The notes beneath the pieces are model-generated. The model searched no databases and had not been told where the DNA came from. It saw only the letters and a list, made by a program, of their open reading frames with translations. The position numbers and the translations under genes were made by a program. DNA of 64,000 nt from the NCBI GenBank assembly GCA_947630505.1, contig CANRHV010000006.1:2589-66588 (forward strand). The letters run 5' to 3'. Of this stretch, positions 58,592-64,000 are shown in pieces; the stretch's first letter is position 1; each line of letters starts with the position of its first letter. Source of the DNA: an uncultured Monoglobus sp. (GTDB lineage: Bacteria > Bacillota > Clostridia > Monoglobales > Monoglobaceae).

Positions 58592-59152
58592 CTATACAGC
58601 AGAATCTCTTCCAAAATCCAATGTGTCTATGCCCTTTTGGTCTATCAAATTTTCAAATTCAATAATACCGTTTTTAATAATATACTCGACCTCATTATCC
58701 GTTACGGGAAGCAGATAAAGCCAGGCAACAACGCAGTCACCGCAATCCAATGATTTATAATCATCCCAATATGGAGGAGTCAACAAAACCGCATGTTTTG
58801 TCGTAGCGTCTTCAATATAATTTTTGTAAACATTTTCAATTATAAATCCAGGATAGGCTGATTTTTCATCCATTATGTAAAATGCCGCTTCCGCTACAAT
58901 ATTTTCAAGATTCTCAAAATCGCTGTCAGCTATTGATATGAGTTCCACCCTCAATGGCTTATCATCAATATTCAGGCTTATCTCTGTGTCACACAATCCT
59001 ATTGTAGACACAACAATACTGTCCGAGTAACGGCTGTTTACAGATGTCATTATGTCAATTGATTTTGATTTGTCCCCGTTATGATACTCAAAAACCTTAG
59101 GCTTGCCGCCTATAAAATTCAACGCATACTTCGCAATACTTTTCTTATTCAT
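58592..59152 (-). CDS. SuFu-family immunity/antitoxin protein (B. subtilis YqcF-like)
   Basis: GGKPKV..Y, SIDI, STIGL, PLRVEL, AF.I, PG.I..NV, KH, PP.W, V.WL..LP..E, GID..R.S.V match the YqcF/SUFU pattern as recalled; RBS GAGGTG. Confidence 0.82.
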   Translation of the reverse strand: MNKKSIAKYALNFIGGKPKVFEYHNGDKSKSIDIMTSVNSRYSDSIVVSTIGLCDTEISLNIDDKPLRVELISIADSDFENLENIVAEAAFYIMDEKSAYPGFIIENVYKNYIEDATTKHAVLLTPPYWDDYKSLDCGDCVVAWLYLLPVTDNEVEYIIKNGIIEFENLIDQKGIDTLDFGRDSAV

Positions 59153-59167
59153 GTTAAAACACCTCTT

Positions 59168-59611
59168 TTAATCTCCAAAATATGAATTTGTTTTGTCTTC
59201 ACCTTTATGGCTTCTGTTCGAACTTGGCAATTCGGGTCTATATTTATTGGGATCATTATACTCGTTTAAAAACTCAGATCTGCTTATTCCTCTGCGCGCG
59301 GCGCTCTCCTGATGTTTTTTAAACTCATGTCCCGGCTTATGTCCCATATCCCACGGTTTATTTTTTGACATATATCTTCCGCTAACAGGGTCTCTGACTC
59401 TGCCGTGCTCATCTTTTGCGTTATCCCAAGCCGTATCGCGAACACCTTTTCTGAAATTCGTCGGACGTTTATATGTTTCGGGGATTCTATTGTTTAAAGA
59501 CTTTTCAGCTTCCCTGTGAGTTGTTTTCGTTTCGGGAAGTGTCTTGTTTATTTTTTCTATTCTATTATTATGAGTTCTTTTAACCTCATTCACTTCATGT
59601 AGTTTTTCCAA
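59168..59611 (-). CDS. Stand-alone GH-E (HNH/EndoVII) nuclease toxin, resembling the YqcG C-terminal domain
   Basis: FRKGVRD, VRDP, PWDMGHKPGHEF, EFLNEYNDP, PELPSSNRSHKGE...YFGD; only ~45 aa precede the domain. Confidence 0.87.
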   Translation of the reverse strand: MEKLHEVNEVKRTHNNRIEKINKTLPETKTTHREAEKSLNNRIPETYKRPTNFRKGVRDTAWDNAKDEHGRVRDPVSGRYMSKNKPWDMGHKPGHEFKKHQESAARRGISRSEFLNEYNDPNKYRPELPSSNRSHKGEDKTNSYFGD

Positions 59612-59613
59612 GT

Positions 59614-62600
59614 TTATTTCACAACTCCTTTTGTATCCTCAATCGGTGCTTCACGGCACAAATCAGATATATAAATGAATATCTTATCGTATTCGCTGTC
59701 ACGCAGCGGATAAAGCAAAAGGCCGATAAGCTTATTTTTTTGAAGCTCTGTGTAGCCGCTTACATCATATGCCAGATTAGATAAAACCGATTTTCGCCAT
59801 GAATCTATATCTTCGCATGAATCCTCCGCTATGTCTATTGCGTGACGCGCGGCAAAAAACACGCTGAGAAGATTTAGAAGGTATCTTCTCCTGTTCTTTC
59901 GGTGATTTTTTAAATATGCGGAAAAATTATATTTTACAACTCCCGGTATATTTGAGTTCATTACGCTCTCTCTGATTTTTCTTAATTCCGCAAGATCACC
60001 GTCAAATATTTCGTTCGTCATTATCAGGTCAAGCAGCTCGGCTTCAACATCTTTGTCGTCTTTATAAAGTTCTTCTTCGCCGCTCTTTACAAATGGTTTG
60101 TTTTCCTCGCATTTATCTACTTGACATAAAACAGCCTCAATCCAATCATTCTGGTATACGGCCGCAACGCCTTTCGGAAGTTTGGACAGTTCAACGATCT
60201 GCTGCTCATTAAGGCCTATTGCTTTACCGACAAGGGCTCTGTCTCCATAATCGGGTAATCTAAGAATAATTTTTGTGTTTGTGTTTCGTATAACAGACAT
60301 ATCCATAAGGCCGGGCGACTGATCCGCTATGATAAATCCCTCACCATATGTACGCATTTCGGCTATCGCATTGGCAATCATTTCAACAGATTTTCCAAGA
60401 ATATTGGAGCCTTCGTTGGACTGTTCCGTAGAAGTTCTTTTAAGCAAATTATGAGCTTCCTCCAATACCGTTATGTGCTTTAATTCACTATTGCTTTCAG
60501 TTCCACACGACATATGATATTCCTGAAGCTTCATAACCATAAGACCCATAATAAAAGACTTTGTCTCCTGCGAGCCAATACGACTTAAATCAATTATAAC
60601 GTTTTTGTTAAACAATTCCACATCTGAAACAGTGTTGTTTGTAAAAATCATCTTATAAAATCCGTTTGTCAGAGATTCAACTCTTGTTGCCAATGAGCCG
60701 ATATAATCACTTTTGCTGTCAGCGGAATATGAAGATTCGTTTACAACATTGTATATCTCATTCAAAACATCTTTAAAAGTCGGATATAATGTGTTGTCTA
60801 TTTTGTTTTCGGAAGTCATCAAGTCCCATCCGCAGACTTCATAGGCCCGCTCAACCGCTTTTTTCAAAACGGCCGGCATTGCGGCGTACATAGGCCAACA
60901 GACGCTAAAAATCTCAATTAGCCTGTCAAGATGCTCCAAAATATGTATACCCTTCGCAAAGGAAAACGGATTAATTCGCAAAAGTCGTGAAATATTGGGA
61001 TTCGTCCCGTAGACGTAAACATCCTCTCTTCCTCCGAAAACATCCTTATATTCGCCTTTGGCGGGCTCAACAACAAGAAACTTTACACCGTTGCGTTCTA
61101 CTGCTTCATTCAGGATTTTATATACTGTATTGGACTTGCCCGATCCGGTAGAGCCGGTAACAAACGTATGAGAGGCAAGACTGTCCAAATCAAGTTTCAC
61201 CCTATCGCCCGATGCTTTACCCATGTGATAAATTCTTCCCATATTTGCGGAACGCTTATGAGCGGCGTCGGAAAGTCTGTATATGTTTCTGCCAAACGGA
61301 GCGGTTTCAACTACCGAGATCCCGTTTACTGATTTTTTTGGAAGCGCTGTCTGTACCGCAAGCTCCTGTCCGGTGACAACCGAACATGCGCTTAGATATA
61401 AGTCAGTATTGTTCGGCTTCAGAAAAATCGGATGAGTAAATCTTGAGAGATATTTTTTAAGCTCTTTAACCTCAGCCGGCTTACCTCTCTCATCCCAAGT
61501 ATTTACATATGAAGCCTGCATGGACGATGACTCGCCATGAATCAAAGCCTTATAATTTGCCGAAACAATGCCGTTTGTTTGGGTATCATCAGAAATTACA
61601 TATGTCGAGGAATTAAAAGCACCATAAACGCGGCAAGACTTGATACGCGCCAAATGCTCGTCAATTTTGCCGAGCAGATCCTGCACGGTTTTATTTATCG
61701 AAGTAATCGTAAGTGAACGACCGCTCTGATCCGAATTCATATTTGTGTCTGTTGCGGATTTTGAACTTCCCACGCTTGTTCCTTTTGTATCCGCTGTTCC
61801 ATGCTGTTCGCTTGTTCCGCCGGATTTACTCTCGGAAGTGGTGTGGCTTTTTGAAAAACCCATTAATCCGGCCATTGATATCATACCTCCAACTATATTT
61901 GTTATCGGATTCGGAATCATTCCTATGGCGGCTCCCAAAACTTTTAAAACGTCAGCGGATGTGGATTTTGTGTCACTTTTCGACGTACTCCAACCGCTGT
62001 TGACACTTGTACTGTTACTGTAGCTCACACTCTGATTGATGCTTTTGGTTATTGATGTTGTGTCACTATGCGAAGTTCCTATTGTCTTTGATTCGTTATA
62101 GGAATAAGCGCTTTTCGCATACGGTGAAAGCTGTGTGTAAAGCATCTCATAGCCGAGTTCCATTCTGTCAAGTTCAGCGGGCTGAATCGGATCAGCGATC
62201 ATAATCGCTGTATATTTTTTCCCCGAAAGAGCGTCAATCATATTTTCAACACCCTGGGTATATGCTTTAATTTCGTCCCTGTTCTTTTTTCGGAGCGACG
62301 GTATCGCGGAGACGGAGGAAACTACTTTTCCCGATGTATCTCCCGTTATGCTGTTTTTTATTATTTTTTCAATATTTTCCGCGTCAATATTGTTTAAATA
62401 CGAGCCCGGAAAATTGCCGTTAAATGCACCCTCAAGCGTTTCACCGGCCACACTTCCGTCCTCTTCGCTTCTGTTTACAGCCCCGATGTAAAAGTCCGTT
62501 TTTTCGCCGTTGCTGTCTATGATGGTAATAACAGTCATACCGTTGGTAAATGCAACATTAAGCGCCGTGCCGAGTTTATCTATCACGCTTTCATCTTTCT

Positions 62601-62802
62601 GATAAACAAATTTATCAAGCTTATACAGCCGCATACTCTTGATAATGTCTTTCTGCAATATTTCATCATCAATTTGCAGTACATCATAATCCGAAAGTTC
62701 AGCAAGATAGTTTTTCGTTATTACCATATTCATTTTTTCGGTTGCGGATTCAAGAGCCGCGCTGTCTCTTATATCAAGAGAATTATTGTTGGTCAAAACC
62801 AC
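59614..62802 (-). CDS. HerA/FtsK-superfamily ATPase (DUF87/DUF853-like), 1062 aa, with a large N-terminal region
   Basis: Walker A VTGSTGSGKSNT, LVVEPAKGEY, Walker B VLEEAHNLL, EMRTYGEGFIIADQSP, NTNTKIILRL; RBS GGAGG. Confidence 0.9.
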   Translation of the reverse strand: MVLTNNNSLDIRDSAALESATEKMNMVITKNYLAELSDYDVLQIDDEILQKDIIKSMRLYKLDKFVYQKDESVIDKLGTALNVAFTNGMTVITIIDSNGEKTDFYIGAVNRSEEDGSVAGETLEGAFNGNFPGSYLNNIDAENIEKIIKNSITGDTSGKVVSSVSAIPSLRKKNRDEIKAYTQGVENMIDALSGKKYTAIMIADPIQPAELDRMELGYEMLYTQLSPYAKSAYSYNESKTIGTSHSDTTSITKSINQSVSYSNSTSVNSGWSTSKSDTKSTSADVLKVLGAAIGMIPNPITNIVGGMISMAGLMGFSKSHTTSESKSGGTSEQHGTADTKGTSVGSSKSATDTNMNSDQSGRSLTITSINKTVQDLLGKIDEHLARIKSCRVYGAFNSSTYVISDDTQTNGIVSANYKALIHGESSSMQASYVNTWDERGKPAEVKELKKYLSRFTHPIFLKPNNTDLYLSACSVVTGQELAVQTALPKKSVNGISVVETAPFGRNIYRLSDAAHKRSANMGRIYHMGKASGDRVKLDLDSLASHTFVTGSTGSGKSNTVYKILNEAVERNGVKFLVVEPAKGEYKDVFGGREDVYVYGTNPNISRLLRINPFSFAKGIHILEHLDRLIEIFSVCWPMYAAMPAVLKKAVERAYEVCGWDLMTSENKIDNTLYPTFKDVLNEIYNVVNESSYSADSKSDYIGSLATRVESLTNGFYKMIFTNNTVSDVELFNKNVIIDLSRIGSQETKSFIMGLMVMKLQEYHMSCGTESNSELKHITVLEEAHNLLKRTSTEQSNEGSNILGKSVEMIANAIAEMRTYGEGFIIADQSPGLMDMSVIRNTNTKIILRLPDYGDRALVGKAIGLNEQQIVELSKLPKGVAAVYQNDWIEAVLCQVDKCEENKPFVKSGEEELYKDDKDVEAELLDLIMTNEIFDGDLAELRKIRESVMNSNIPGVVKYNFSAYLKNHRKNRRRYLLNLLSVFFAARHAIDIAEDSCEDIDSWRKSVLSNLAYDVSGYTELQKNKLIGLLLYPLRDSEYDKIFIYISDLCREAPIEDTKGVVK

Positions 62803-62829: not shown

Positions 62830-63567
62830 TTATTTAAAAATGCTTTTTAATAACCAAATAACAGCCCCGATTGCCGCAGCCGCACCCGCCGCTAACGGAA
62901 TAAAAGACGATGGCTGAACGTTCTTTTTATATTCGGGACGAGTATAATTATTTTGATTTGAATTAGTTCTGTTCGTGTTTTCACCAGCTGCCTTTTTTGC
63001 GTTTGCGGTGTCACTCGCGTTTCCTCCGGATGACGTTTTCACCTTCGCGGCATCACTCGCGTTTCCTACGGATGCCGTTTTCACCTTCGCGGCGTCACTC
63101 GCGTTTCCTACGGATGCCGTTTTCACCTTCGCAGTGTCTTTCACATTTCCTCCGGACGCACTGTTCGCTCTGTAGTTTGCGGTGTTTGTCACGGACATTG
63201 GTTTTGAGATATGCTCTGTTTGAGTTTTTTGATTCGCTGTATTACCATAGACCGCTTCACCTATACGAACCGCGTCATTAAAGCGTTCTTTGCAAAAGTT
63301 TATTTTAAGGTTGGTGACCGCATTTATAAAATCATTTGCCGTAAATTGAGTTTTTGACTGAGCAATAAGCTCGGGAGAACCGCTGTATTTCTCAAACATA
63401 TTGGGATAATTCGCGCTAAGCTTCTCTATAACCATCCCGTACTTGCTTATGTCTTCCTTGCTGAAGCTTTTACTCATTAATATATTTGCGGTTCTGGTCC
63501 TCGCCGCAGTTATGTTATTGTTTTTCATATCACCGGATATGCGATCTATAATTTCCTGTGCTGTCAT
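62830..63567 (-). CDS. Hypothetical tail-anchored protein with a 14-aa tandem-repeat linker
   Basis: Helical N-terminus, Ala/Ser/Lys/Asn-rich repeats, C-terminal TM segment FIPLAAGAAAAIGAVIWLLKSIFK; no signal peptide. Confidence 0.75.
   Translation of the reverse strand: MTAQEIIDRISGDMKNNNITAARTRTANILMSKSFSKEDISKYGMVIEKLSANYPNMFEKYSGSPELIAQSKTQFTANDFINAVTNLKINFCKERFNDAVRIGEAVYGNTANQKTQTEHISKPMSVTNTANYRANSASGGNVKDTAKVKTASVGNASDAAKVKTASVGNASDAAKVKTSSGGNASDTANAKKAAGENTNRTNSNQNNYTRPEYKKNVQPSSFIPLAAGAAAAIGAVIWLLKSIFK
63003..63165 (-). repeat. About four copies of a 42-bp in-frame tandem repeat
   Basis: TCACTCGCGTTTCCT recurs at 63011, 63053 and 63095, with a degenerate copy at 63137; encodes (T/S)ASVGNASDAAKVK-type units. 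Confidence 0.9.
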
Positions 63568-63579
63568 TTTTATCACTCC

Positions 63580-64000
63580 TTAAAATTCCATAATATGATT
63601 TATTTTATCCGCAAGCTCTTCTATTTGAGCAAGCTTTTTCTCGTTATTTTTTATTTCCGACTTAAGCTCCTCAACGTTTTTGAGCTTGTCCTCCTGATCC
63701 TGTATGATTTGTTTTATCTTCTCACTGAGTTTGTTAAGGTTGCGCTTAAATATATTCTTGTATTTTTGAACTTCATCTTTAGCATTTTCAAATGTTGTGT
63801 CGATTTCGTTCATCAGCATATTTTCCACATCAGTTATCTCACCGATAATAATGTTATCGGTATCTACAATTTCTCTTTGTCCGATTACGCGCGAGGTTGT
63901 AATATATTTAGGTTTCCATATTTTAAATTTGCCCAAAATTCCTGATCTTTCAGGATTTCTGATTTCATATTCTTCCTCAATATCCTCATAACGGATATTC
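63580..64000 (-). CDS. 3' end of a coiled-coil protein that starts beyond the right edge (possibly a bacterial dynamin-like protein)
   Basis: The frame stays open upstream of the tracked TTG 63936 to the window edge (NIRYEDIEEEYEIRNPERSGILGKFKIWKPK...); long heptad-rich helices. The dynamin identity is a guess, as no GTPase domain is visible. Confidence 0.6.
   Translation of the reverse strand, partial: NIRYEDIEEEYEIRNPERSGILGKFKIWKPKYITTSRVIGQREIVDTDNIIIGEITDVENMLMNEIDTTFENAKDEVQKYKNIFKRNLNKLSEKIKQIIQDQEDKLKNVEELKSEIKNNEKKLAQIEELADKINHIMEF

Follow-up and report, generated by a model that had tools for sequence, protein, structure and literature searches.

A putative β-hairpin stalk with length-matched Ser/Thr-rich arms in the VirB4-like N-terminal module of a HerA-type ATPase

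Introduction

VirB4/TrwK, the inner-membrane ATPase of type IV secretion systems, combines an N-terminal α/β domain with a HerA/FtsK-type P-loop domain. We analysed a protein of the same two-module build encoded by an uncultured Monoglobus sp., in a 64,000-nucleotide stretch of DNA (hereafter the window; positions 2,589 to 66,588 of contig CANRHV010000006.1, assembly GCA_947630505.1). The gene, a single open reading frame (ORF) on the minus strand (59614..62802), encodes 1,062 residues of a VirB4-like, HerA-type putative ring ATPase with a Ser/Thr-rich insert in its N-terminal module (N-module, residues 1–520). Foldseek matched the N-module to VirB4/TrwK with probabilities of 0.96–0.99 over ~500 columns and the whole model over ~1,050 columns, with template modelling (TM) scores of only 0.31–0.34; the sequence matches DUF87 rather than a VirB4 model. 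No genes for VirB3, VirB6, VirB8, VirB10, a relaxase or a coupling protein were found in the window, the flanking contig or the six loci that were read. No VirB4 that carries a Ser/Thr hairpin insert is known to us.

Two other groups of systems pair a related ATPase with nucleases. Archaeal HerA-NurA and the anti-phage systems Sir2-HerA/Nezha and DUF4297-HerA likewise encode a HerA-type ATPase beside a nuclease, and the ATPase domain of the query is HerA-type both by Foldseek (4d2i, 8wod, 8ziq) and by sequence matches in the PDB. The partner in those systems is Sir2, DUF4297 or NurA; here it is an HNH/EndoVII DNase, small and polymorphic, that comes with an immunity protein. At the window locus the neighbours are a GH-E DNase and a SUFU protein, and neither Sir2 nor DUF4297 is present. 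HerA carries a HAS barrel N-terminally, in contrast to the VirB4-like N-module of the query. The type VIIb secretion system (EssC, LXG, EsaD) likewise combines a membrane-associated FtsK/HerA-superfamily ATPase with nuclease toxins and SUKH or YezG immunity proteins. Its toxins keep their N-terminal region constant while the C-terminal one changes, to which the short, subtype-specific leaders described below may be a partial parallel. However, EssC has three or four ATPase domains and the query a single P-loop domain, and dynamin-like partners stand here in the place of EssA/B and EsaA. Pfam scans of the operon and of 81 downstream toxins gave no FHA, WXG100 or LXG match.

Two further comparisons concern the insert and the upstream genes. 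The stems of β-barrel pore formers (anthrax protective antigen (PA), aerolysin, α-haemolysin) share with the insert, as we read it, a long hairpin with alternate Ser/Thr residues that would line one face, a hydrophobic tip element and a ring oligomer that could close a barrel. The query protein differs from them in being cytoplasmic, without a signal peptide, and in having its hydrophobicity confined to a Gly/Ala-rich, possibly helical tip; Foldseek searches with the model and with the N-module gave no sequence or fold match to such stems. The dynamin-like GTPases of the cassette, finally, recall the bacterial dynamin-like systems DynA of B. subtilis and LeoABC/Eleos, which are not known to include genes for an ATPase, a DNase or an immunity protein. 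For DynA, activity at damaged membranes and a delay of phage lysis are reported (PMC8844932).

Here we compare the insert across homologues and describe the cassette in which its gene lies. We assign a probability of about 0.6 to the reading of this family-wide insert in the N-module of a ring ATPase as a two-stranded antiparallel β-hairpin stalk with a membrane-seeking tip.

Architecture of the ATPase and its insert

The insert (61699..62112, minus strand, as are all window features below) consists of two Ser/Thr-rich arms of equal length around a hydrophobic tip. Arm 1 (residues 231–282; 61957..62112) is supported by its composition, the family profile and a strand at 230–243 in AlphaFold2 (AF2) models. 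The Gly-rich tip with its central PNP turn (residues 283–316; 61855..61956) is supported by composition and hydropathy, and arm 2 (residues 317–368; 61699..61854), a return strand as long as arm 1, includes an AF2 strand at 356–369. Our translation is identical to the letters given in a first-pass annotation of this DNA, whose description of 52 + 34 + 52 residues with PNP in mid-segment stands. Ser and Thr make up 27 of 52 residues in arm 1 and 24 of 52 in arm 2, neither arm contains Pro, and the tip has 20 hydrophobic residues among its 34, with 6 Gly.

The same annotation had placed the insert inside the HerA ATPase, but it is not in the ATPase domain itself. The Pfam DUF87 match (PF01935; 66.3 bits against a gathering threshold of 23.2) spans residues 529–753, and the insert lies ~160 residues upstream of it, in the N-module, between helix 208–229 and helix 371–393. 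Both parts of the N-module that frame it are modelled with a predicted local distance difference test (pLDDT) score of ~90: the α/β part 1 (residues 1–230; 62113..62802), whose helix 208–229 runs into arm 1, and part 2 (residues 369–520; 61243..61698), which opens with helix 371–393. The HerA/FtsK-type P-loop ATPase domain follows (residues 521–905; 60088..61242), with Pfam matches to DUF87 and, weakly, to TrwB_AAD_bind and FtsK_SpoIIIE (the last at 26 bits over 60 residues), and then a C-terminal helical domain (residues 906–1062; 59617..60087), with AF2 helices over 916–1051 and a mostly unconserved family consensus. The P-loop domain has a Walker A motif, GSTGSGKS, at 550–557 and a Walker B motif, VLEEAH, at 779–784. 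In 115 representatives, G555, K556, E781, E782 and R817 are invariant. In part 2 of the N-module, G394, Y401, G423, W436, P458 and P488 are invariant.

Top Foldseek matches of the whole model were HerA hexamers, HerA chains of defence complexes and VirB4/TrwK, with HerA 4d2i at E = 1.6e-14. For the N-module, all PDB matches with a probability above 0.9 were to the VirB4/TrwK N-terminal domain, and the top twelve VirB4 matches had probabilities of 0.82–0.99, E values of 4e-3 to 4e-2 and TM scores of 0.22–0.34. By its predicted structure the protein appears to be built like VirB4, and its sequence is HerA-like.

Matched arm lengths across homologues

Searches yielded at least 118 full-length homologues with 38–50% identity to the query, and residues 1–520 as query yielded 1,052 cluster representatives, 320 of them with E below 1e-30. 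We bounded the insert by the conserved anchors P227 and N370 (query numbering) and, for 253 non-identical members, determined where between these anchors hydrophobicity peaks. Insert length ranges from 89 to 220 residues among these homologues, yet the centre of the hydrophobic stretch falls at a fraction of 0.51 ± 0.06 along it (within 0.45–0.55 in 87%). The two arms differ by a median of 3 residues over a range of 28–95, as in the sample pairs 55/54, 51/52, 70/69, 75/73, 81/82, 91/89 and 38/39; in one related trio the pairs are 65/65, 69/66 and 81/82. This symmetry is far beyond chance.

Shared ancestry was corrected for by independent contrasts of the arm lengths on a FastTree phylogeny of the ATPase domain. 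Contrasts in arm 1 and arm 2 length are correlated (r = 0.34, p = 4e-8) and share their sign in 135 of 196 cases, and tip length is uncorrelated with the length of either arm. The arms do not, then, vary independently among homologues, being both matched in length and co-varying on the tree.

Monoderm and diderm hosts show no difference in arm or tip length, and hence no scaling of the arms to the envelope. A role in spanning the envelope was ruled out on this ground and by the lack of a signal peptide.

β character of the arms

The alternation of Ser and Thr described in the first-pass annotation is modest in the query alone and becomes unmistakable across homologues. In query arm 1, Ser/Thr falls on even versus odd residue numbers in a ratio of 20:7 (p = 0.019), and in arm 2 on odd versus even in a ratio of 17:7 (p = 0.064); the Ser/Thr autocorrelation z is ~1.8 for arm 1 and ~0 for arm 2. 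Because single-sequence autocorrelation is weak, the periodicity claim rests on the family profile, in which both arms of 224 members were indexed from their bases. Over at least 44 positions, Ser/Thr occupies alternating positions at 64% versus 17% in arm 1 and 60% versus 22% in arm 2. When Ser/Thr occupancy is cross-correlated between the arms, the sign changes from each of the 17 offsets tested to the next, and the maximum is at offset 0. Pro accounts for 0.2% of arm residues in these members.

The opposite face differs between the arms. On arm 1 it carries a hydrophobic residue at each fourth position (57–87%). Non-Ser/Thr positions are otherwise mostly polar, and those of arm 2 are hydrophobic in 15–25%. 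The proposed likeness to the stems of aerolysin and PA does not extend to this face, as the arms lack a lipid-facing hydrophobic face, and a true stem of that type was ruled out for the same reason. A coiled coil was likewise rejected, given the Ser/Thr richness, the period of 2 and the absence of heptads.

Two single-chain AF2 runs were made, one of the full protein (pLDDT 79, predicted TM score 0.71) and one of residues 1–520 with 96 sequences. In both, residues 230–243 are paired antiparallel with 356–369 (i + j = 599), a register in which the two sets of Ser/Thr positions come to lie on a single face. Disorder is predicted further out, as far as the monomer shows (pLDDT below 50 for residues 242–359). 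At ~85% ATPase identity the arms retain identities of 0.69 and 0.60, compared with 0.77 for the N-domain; by these comparisons the arms evolve moderately faster than the globular parts, yet are constrained. Given the length matching, the co-variation, the period-2 pattern, the scarcity of Pro and the modelled base pairing, the arms are best read as a paired β-hairpin and not as independent disordered linkers.

The tip

The tip is the more variable part of the insert. Its length ranges from 3 to 84 residues across the family, reaching at least 30 residues in 59% of members and falling below 15 in 20% (short tips include FGFLGMG, ILGLG and FGIF). Its family composition is 23% Gly and 22% Ala. 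Hydropathy is 1.6 or above in 40% of members and below 1.0 in 31%, and the tip of a copy on an E. coli plasmid is largely polar and charged. In the query, the best 19-residue Kyte-Doolittle mean is 1.26, compared with the usual 1.6 for a transmembrane helix, and the tip, with halves of 12 and 17 residues, could not accommodate a canonical pair of transmembrane helices.

A membrane-inserting helical hairpin, as first proposed for this segment, is therefore not a family constant, given the members with tips below 15 residues or hydropathy below 1.0. From tip sequences, insertion is plausible for many members and uncertain for the query.

A sister family with giant arms

A distant homologue of 1,683 residues found by protein search (P0120) was the entry point to a sister family of HerA-type ATPases of 1,081–1,765 residues. 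Ser-rich inserts in its relatives span 305–820 residues with 0–2 Pro per whole insert. A Gly/hydrophobic tip of 9–20 residues lies within 0.47–0.53 of the insert in 56 of 67 members (median 0.499). The arms, 153–398 residues long and without Pro in their composition, are matched within ~4 residues (r = 0.99), with pairs such as 321/321, 291/291, 300/300 and 398/404.

Gene contexts of the sister family vary. In one locus (L093, 8001–11726) the gene adjoins a Tad-like pilus cluster (CpaB-like, TadZ-like, T2SSE, two T2SSF and prepilin peptidase genes), and in another (L094, 8001–12983) it adjoins excisionase-like, cell-wall hydrolase and methyltransferase genes.

Among curated models, NCBIfam NF033849 ('ser_rich_anae_1') alone recognises the build of the query; it carries no functional description beyond 'serine-rich protein'. 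It matches query residues 371–870 at 89 bits, far short of the 650 required for membership, and no members were found in the 200 Clostridia genomes searched. P0120 has a Ser-rich architecture of the same kind, a likeness in build rather than an assignment to NF033849.

Gene cassette

The ATPase gene lies in an operon that runs, 5' to 3', dynamin-like GTPase 1, GTPase 2, tail-anchored protein, ATPase, GH-E DNase and SUFU immunity protein. GTPase 1 (394 residues) is encoded upstream of GTPase 2, beyond the window end. GTPase 2 (791 residues) has the 3' part of its ORF in the window (63580..64000) and runs to window-equivalent position 65955; the pair match Pfam Dynamin_N at 58 and 59 bits. In PADLOC, GTPase 1 had a weak, partial match to LeoA (24 bits over 80 residues) and GTPase 2 had no Leo match. 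The ATPase gave only partial, generic HerA/mad8 matches there, the tail-anchored protein, toxin and immunity protein gave none, and the cassette is absent as a system.

The tail-anchored protein (248 residues; 62830..63576) comprises an N-terminal helical domain, AKVKTASVGNASDA repeats and a C-terminal transmembrane segment, and has no Pfam match. Homologues of it occupy the same position in most loci. Its repeats are three tandem copies of ~14 residues (AKVKTASVGNASDA, window positions 62975–63175) between the helical domain and the transmembrane segment, and in homologues the linker length at this site varies widely.

We identified at least 580 species-representative loci, among them a Monoglobus locus 97% identical to that of the window, and read the gene order in 80. 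The order is the same in Alkaliphilus, Oscillospiraceae, Lachnospiraceae and Actinobacillus and recurs in most of the 80 loci, including those of Paenibacillus, Brachyspira, Campylobacter/Wolinella, Veillonella, Leptotrichia, Synergistaceae and Pasteurellaceae. Upstream genes recognised by BLAST in the 80 loci encode dynamin-like, tail-anchored or WYL proteins. A WYL regulator gene precedes the dynamins in most relatives, but not in the cassette of the window.

The upstream modules come in several variants: two dynamins with a tail-anchored protein; two dynamins with two proteins of no assigned family, as in L024 (1765–7914), where the GTPases flank proteins of 419 and 349 residues; Sel1/TPR proteins; and, in a clade with short arms, an unassigned protein of 540 residues. 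The Sel1/TPR proteins, which replace the dynamins in one subtype, have Pfam TPR-S matches in the three sampled loci (L020, L031, L042). Some cassettes encode one fused, two-headed dynamin-like protein in place of the pair.

Complete cassettes also occur on conjugative plasmids, one on Lactococcus cremoris pF27B (L091), near an Abi gene, and one on the IncI plasmid pTW10590_133 of E. coli TW10590 (L092), the single occurrence among 5,426 complete E. coli genomes. One cassette has an McrBC neighbour.

DNase toxins and immunity proteins

The DNase toxin of the window (147 residues; 59168..59611) has a GH-E HNH/EndoVII domain at residues 70–138 (Pfam GH-E, 82 bits), and its start lies 2 nucleotides past the ATPase stop. 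It is followed by the gene for the immunity protein (186 residues; 58592..59152; Pfam SUFU, 58 bits). Across 81 loci, the gene after the ATPase encodes a WHH/colicin-DNase protein in 39, Endonuclea_NS_2 in 16, LHH in 12, HNH in 2 and GH-E in 1, and HNH/EndoVII-type DNases account for ~70 of these 81 genes. At the immunity position, read in 69 loci, we found SUKH in 27, DUF6985 in 16, PoNi and YezG in 2 each and SUFU in 1. Domain matches thus give a variable toxin domain with an adjoining downstream immunity gene, the arrangement by which polymorphic toxins are recognised.

The toxins share no single N-terminus but carry short, subtype-specific leaders. Four toxins aligned globally had no N-terminal region in common, and subtype leaders appeared only when all 81 were compared; no known trafficking domain was found in them. 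The leader FADSPLG, common to different nuclease types, is present in 14 of the 81 against 0.01 expected. A motif of the form hydrophobic-x-E/D-hydrophobic-x-E/D is present in 24 against 5.2 expected, and the leader of the window toxin, MEKLHEVNEVK, fits it. Judged from these motifs, the leaders are possible docking or export signals. Other leaders seen were PEIS.EA..KF..L..DD in the subtype with two dynamins and two unassigned proteins and Y.EI.PE....FWDN in the Sel1/TPR subtype.

Interpretation of the insert

The β-hairpin stalk that we favour would have strands of ~52–60 residues, one all-Ser/Thr face and a hydrophobic, Gly/Ala-rich tip at the midpoint; its arms would change length together because the strands are kept in register. 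The ring would be assembled as a hexamer, as for HerA and VirB4, with the stalks projecting from its N-terminal face. The tip would engage the cytoplasmic membrane or a membrane-bound partner, for which the tail-anchored protein and the two dynamin-like GTPases are candidates, and this contact would place the motor at the membrane. The client of the motor would be the small DNase encoded directly downstream, with its leader, swappable nuclease domain and cognate immunity protein.

Two roles may be envisaged for such a motor. At a little short of even odds, we tentatively propose an intracellular role, in which the motor would release or activate the DNase in a defence or abortive response. This role is consistent with the DNase-only partners, the HerA-nuclease precedents, the WYL regulators and the interchangeable upstream sensor-like modules, as well as with the plasmid and defence-island contexts and with the same build whatever the envelope type. 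It is conceivable, with rather more doubt, that the motor exports the DNase as an interbacterial toxin, a role to which the exported polymorphic toxin and immunity families, the swapping of nucleases behind conserved leaders and the likeness of the motor to secretion ATPases would point.

Several points weigh against the stalk and its proposed function. The pLDDT is below 50 for residues 242–359 in both monomer runs, and two isolated β strands of 14–17 nm would be unstable alone, so that higher-order packing would be needed. The periodicity of query arm 2 is marginal on its own (17:7, p = 0.064, with z near 0). The correlation of contrasts falls to r = −0.015 once a few sequences with tips too weak to locate are kept (arms called 3/106 and 123/19), although the sign test is still significant (127 of 204). 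The query tip lies under the transmembrane hydropathy threshold, and in 20–30% of members, the copy on the E. coli plasmid among them, the tip is short or polar. For the cassette, any function is putative, and none is published in the literature searched.

The evidence for a β-hairpin would apply in full if the stalks were joined into a built-in conduit, as the first-pass annotation had suggested. Six hairpins would then form a 12-stranded, Ser/Thr-lined β-barrel of ~14 nm, coaxial with the ATPase pore and with membrane-spanning Gly/Ala tips, and the motor would strip the immunity protein and thread the unfolded, leader-tagged DNase through the tube across the cytoplasmic membrane. β-Barrel lumens are Ser/Thr-lined in anthrax PA and α-haemolysin, and the uniform Ser/Thr face of the arms resembles them; the relatives of the motor are secretion-type ring ATPases (VirB4, TrwB, FtsK), and the toxins, with leaders specific to each subtype and translational coupling to the ATPase, belong with their immunity proteins to families typical of exported polymorphic toxins. 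We nevertheless regard a conduit as unlikely. The hydrophobic residue at each fourth position on the other face of arm 1 would be odd on the outside of a barrel that faces solvent, 20–30% of members have a polar tip or none, the 81 cargo genes show DNases only, and the cassette, which like the arm lengths is alike in monoderms and diderms, has no component that would cross a wall or outer membrane. If six hairpins did form such a barrel, unlikely as this is, the ring ATPase would have its own channel, through which the DNase would be pushed to a membrane or across it. The channel would measure ~14 nm in the query, and the 400-residue arms of the sister family would extend it to as much as ~100 nm. 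It would represent a new class of secretion or injection apparatus, made of one polypeptide with dynamin-like membrane remodellers, and the cargo in the sister family, in its Tad-like or putative mobile-element context, might be DNA or protein.

The low pLDDT over residues 242–359 would also be expected of a simple tether, in which flexible, low-complexity Ser/Thr linkers carry a membrane anchor and have equal lengths from joining the same two points. Ser/Thr richness is common in linkers, and the arms evolve faster than the domains. Slack linkers, however, need no matching within ~3 residues over a range of 28–95, or within ~4 over 153–398; nor would they be expected to hold a period-2 pattern without loss of phase for upwards of 40 positions in each arm, or to contain 0.2% Pro where disordered linkers are usually Pro-rich. 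With the arm bases modelled as a paired hairpin, and with the 20% of members that lack an anchor-length tip still symmetric, we consider a tether improbable. Least probable, to the point of being a marginal candidate, is a latent pore-former, in which stowed hairpins would be released by a phage or membrane-damage trigger, sensed through the dynamin-like or TPR partners, and enter the cell's own membrane tip first, for an abortive depolarisation beside the DNase. The Gly/Ala tips recall, by analogy, glycine-zipper or fusion-peptide-like segments, which insert post-translationally, and the WYL regulators, the McrBC neighbour, the lactococcal plasmid with its Abi gene and the interchangeable upstream sensor-like modules (dynamins or Sel1/TPR-S) would suit such a trigger. 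Both faces of the arms are hydrophilic, however, leaving the tip as the one part that could go into a bilayer; many tips lack the length or are too polar for this, and the DNase, always present as a second effector, would make a pore redundant.

To our knowledge, no P-loop ring motor with length-equal β-hairpin arms has been described, and we found no description of the cassette or the arms in the literature searched, which included two lactococcal anti-phage papers. New here, and quantified in each case, are the matching of arm lengths, their phylogenetic co-variation, the in-phase periodicity, the depletion of Pro and the giant-arm sister family. Matching of the arms over a range of 17–400 residues in two large families is a strong and simple evolutionary signal of an unusual structure. 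The cassette also joins dynamin-like membrane remodellers, a secretion-type ATPase and polymorphic DNase toxins, three components not known to work together. Its hosts belong to several phyla and include gut Clostridia, Paenibacillus, Campylobacter, Brachyspira and Pasteurellaceae, with plasmid copies in dairy Lactococcus and E. coli; some of the hosts are culturable and genetically tractable, which makes the cassette directly testable.

Additional observations

Proteins of the Bacillus phages JL, Slash and G in BFVD (S5MSQ0, U5Q0H6, G3MBM2, G3MBM1) share the N-module fold over ~480 columns with E values of 1e-6 to 1e-4, and by these predicted structures phages may carry relatives of the motor. 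A homologue of 844 residues (P0119) has the N-module with arms and tip followed by an Endonuclea_NS_2 domain and a Gly-rich hydrophobic C-terminus, with no ATPase domain; either a natural fusion or an error of assembly may account for it. In Actinobacillus lignieresii a break inside arm 1 divides the ATPase gene into ORFs of 201 and 828 residues (L007, 9280–9885 and 10001–12487) and the gene for the tail-anchored protein is in three pieces. This copy may be decaying, or the splits may be sequencing errors.

Upstream of the gene for GTPase 1 in the Monoglobus contig, there is only a gap of 410 nucleotides (L002, 9730–10141) before the next gene, which has the same orientation and encodes an adenine deaminase. 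Outside the window, the contig ends in an open-ended ORF (L002, 14286–15239) that resembles, by eye, a family-A DNA polymerase of the phage or mobile-element type.

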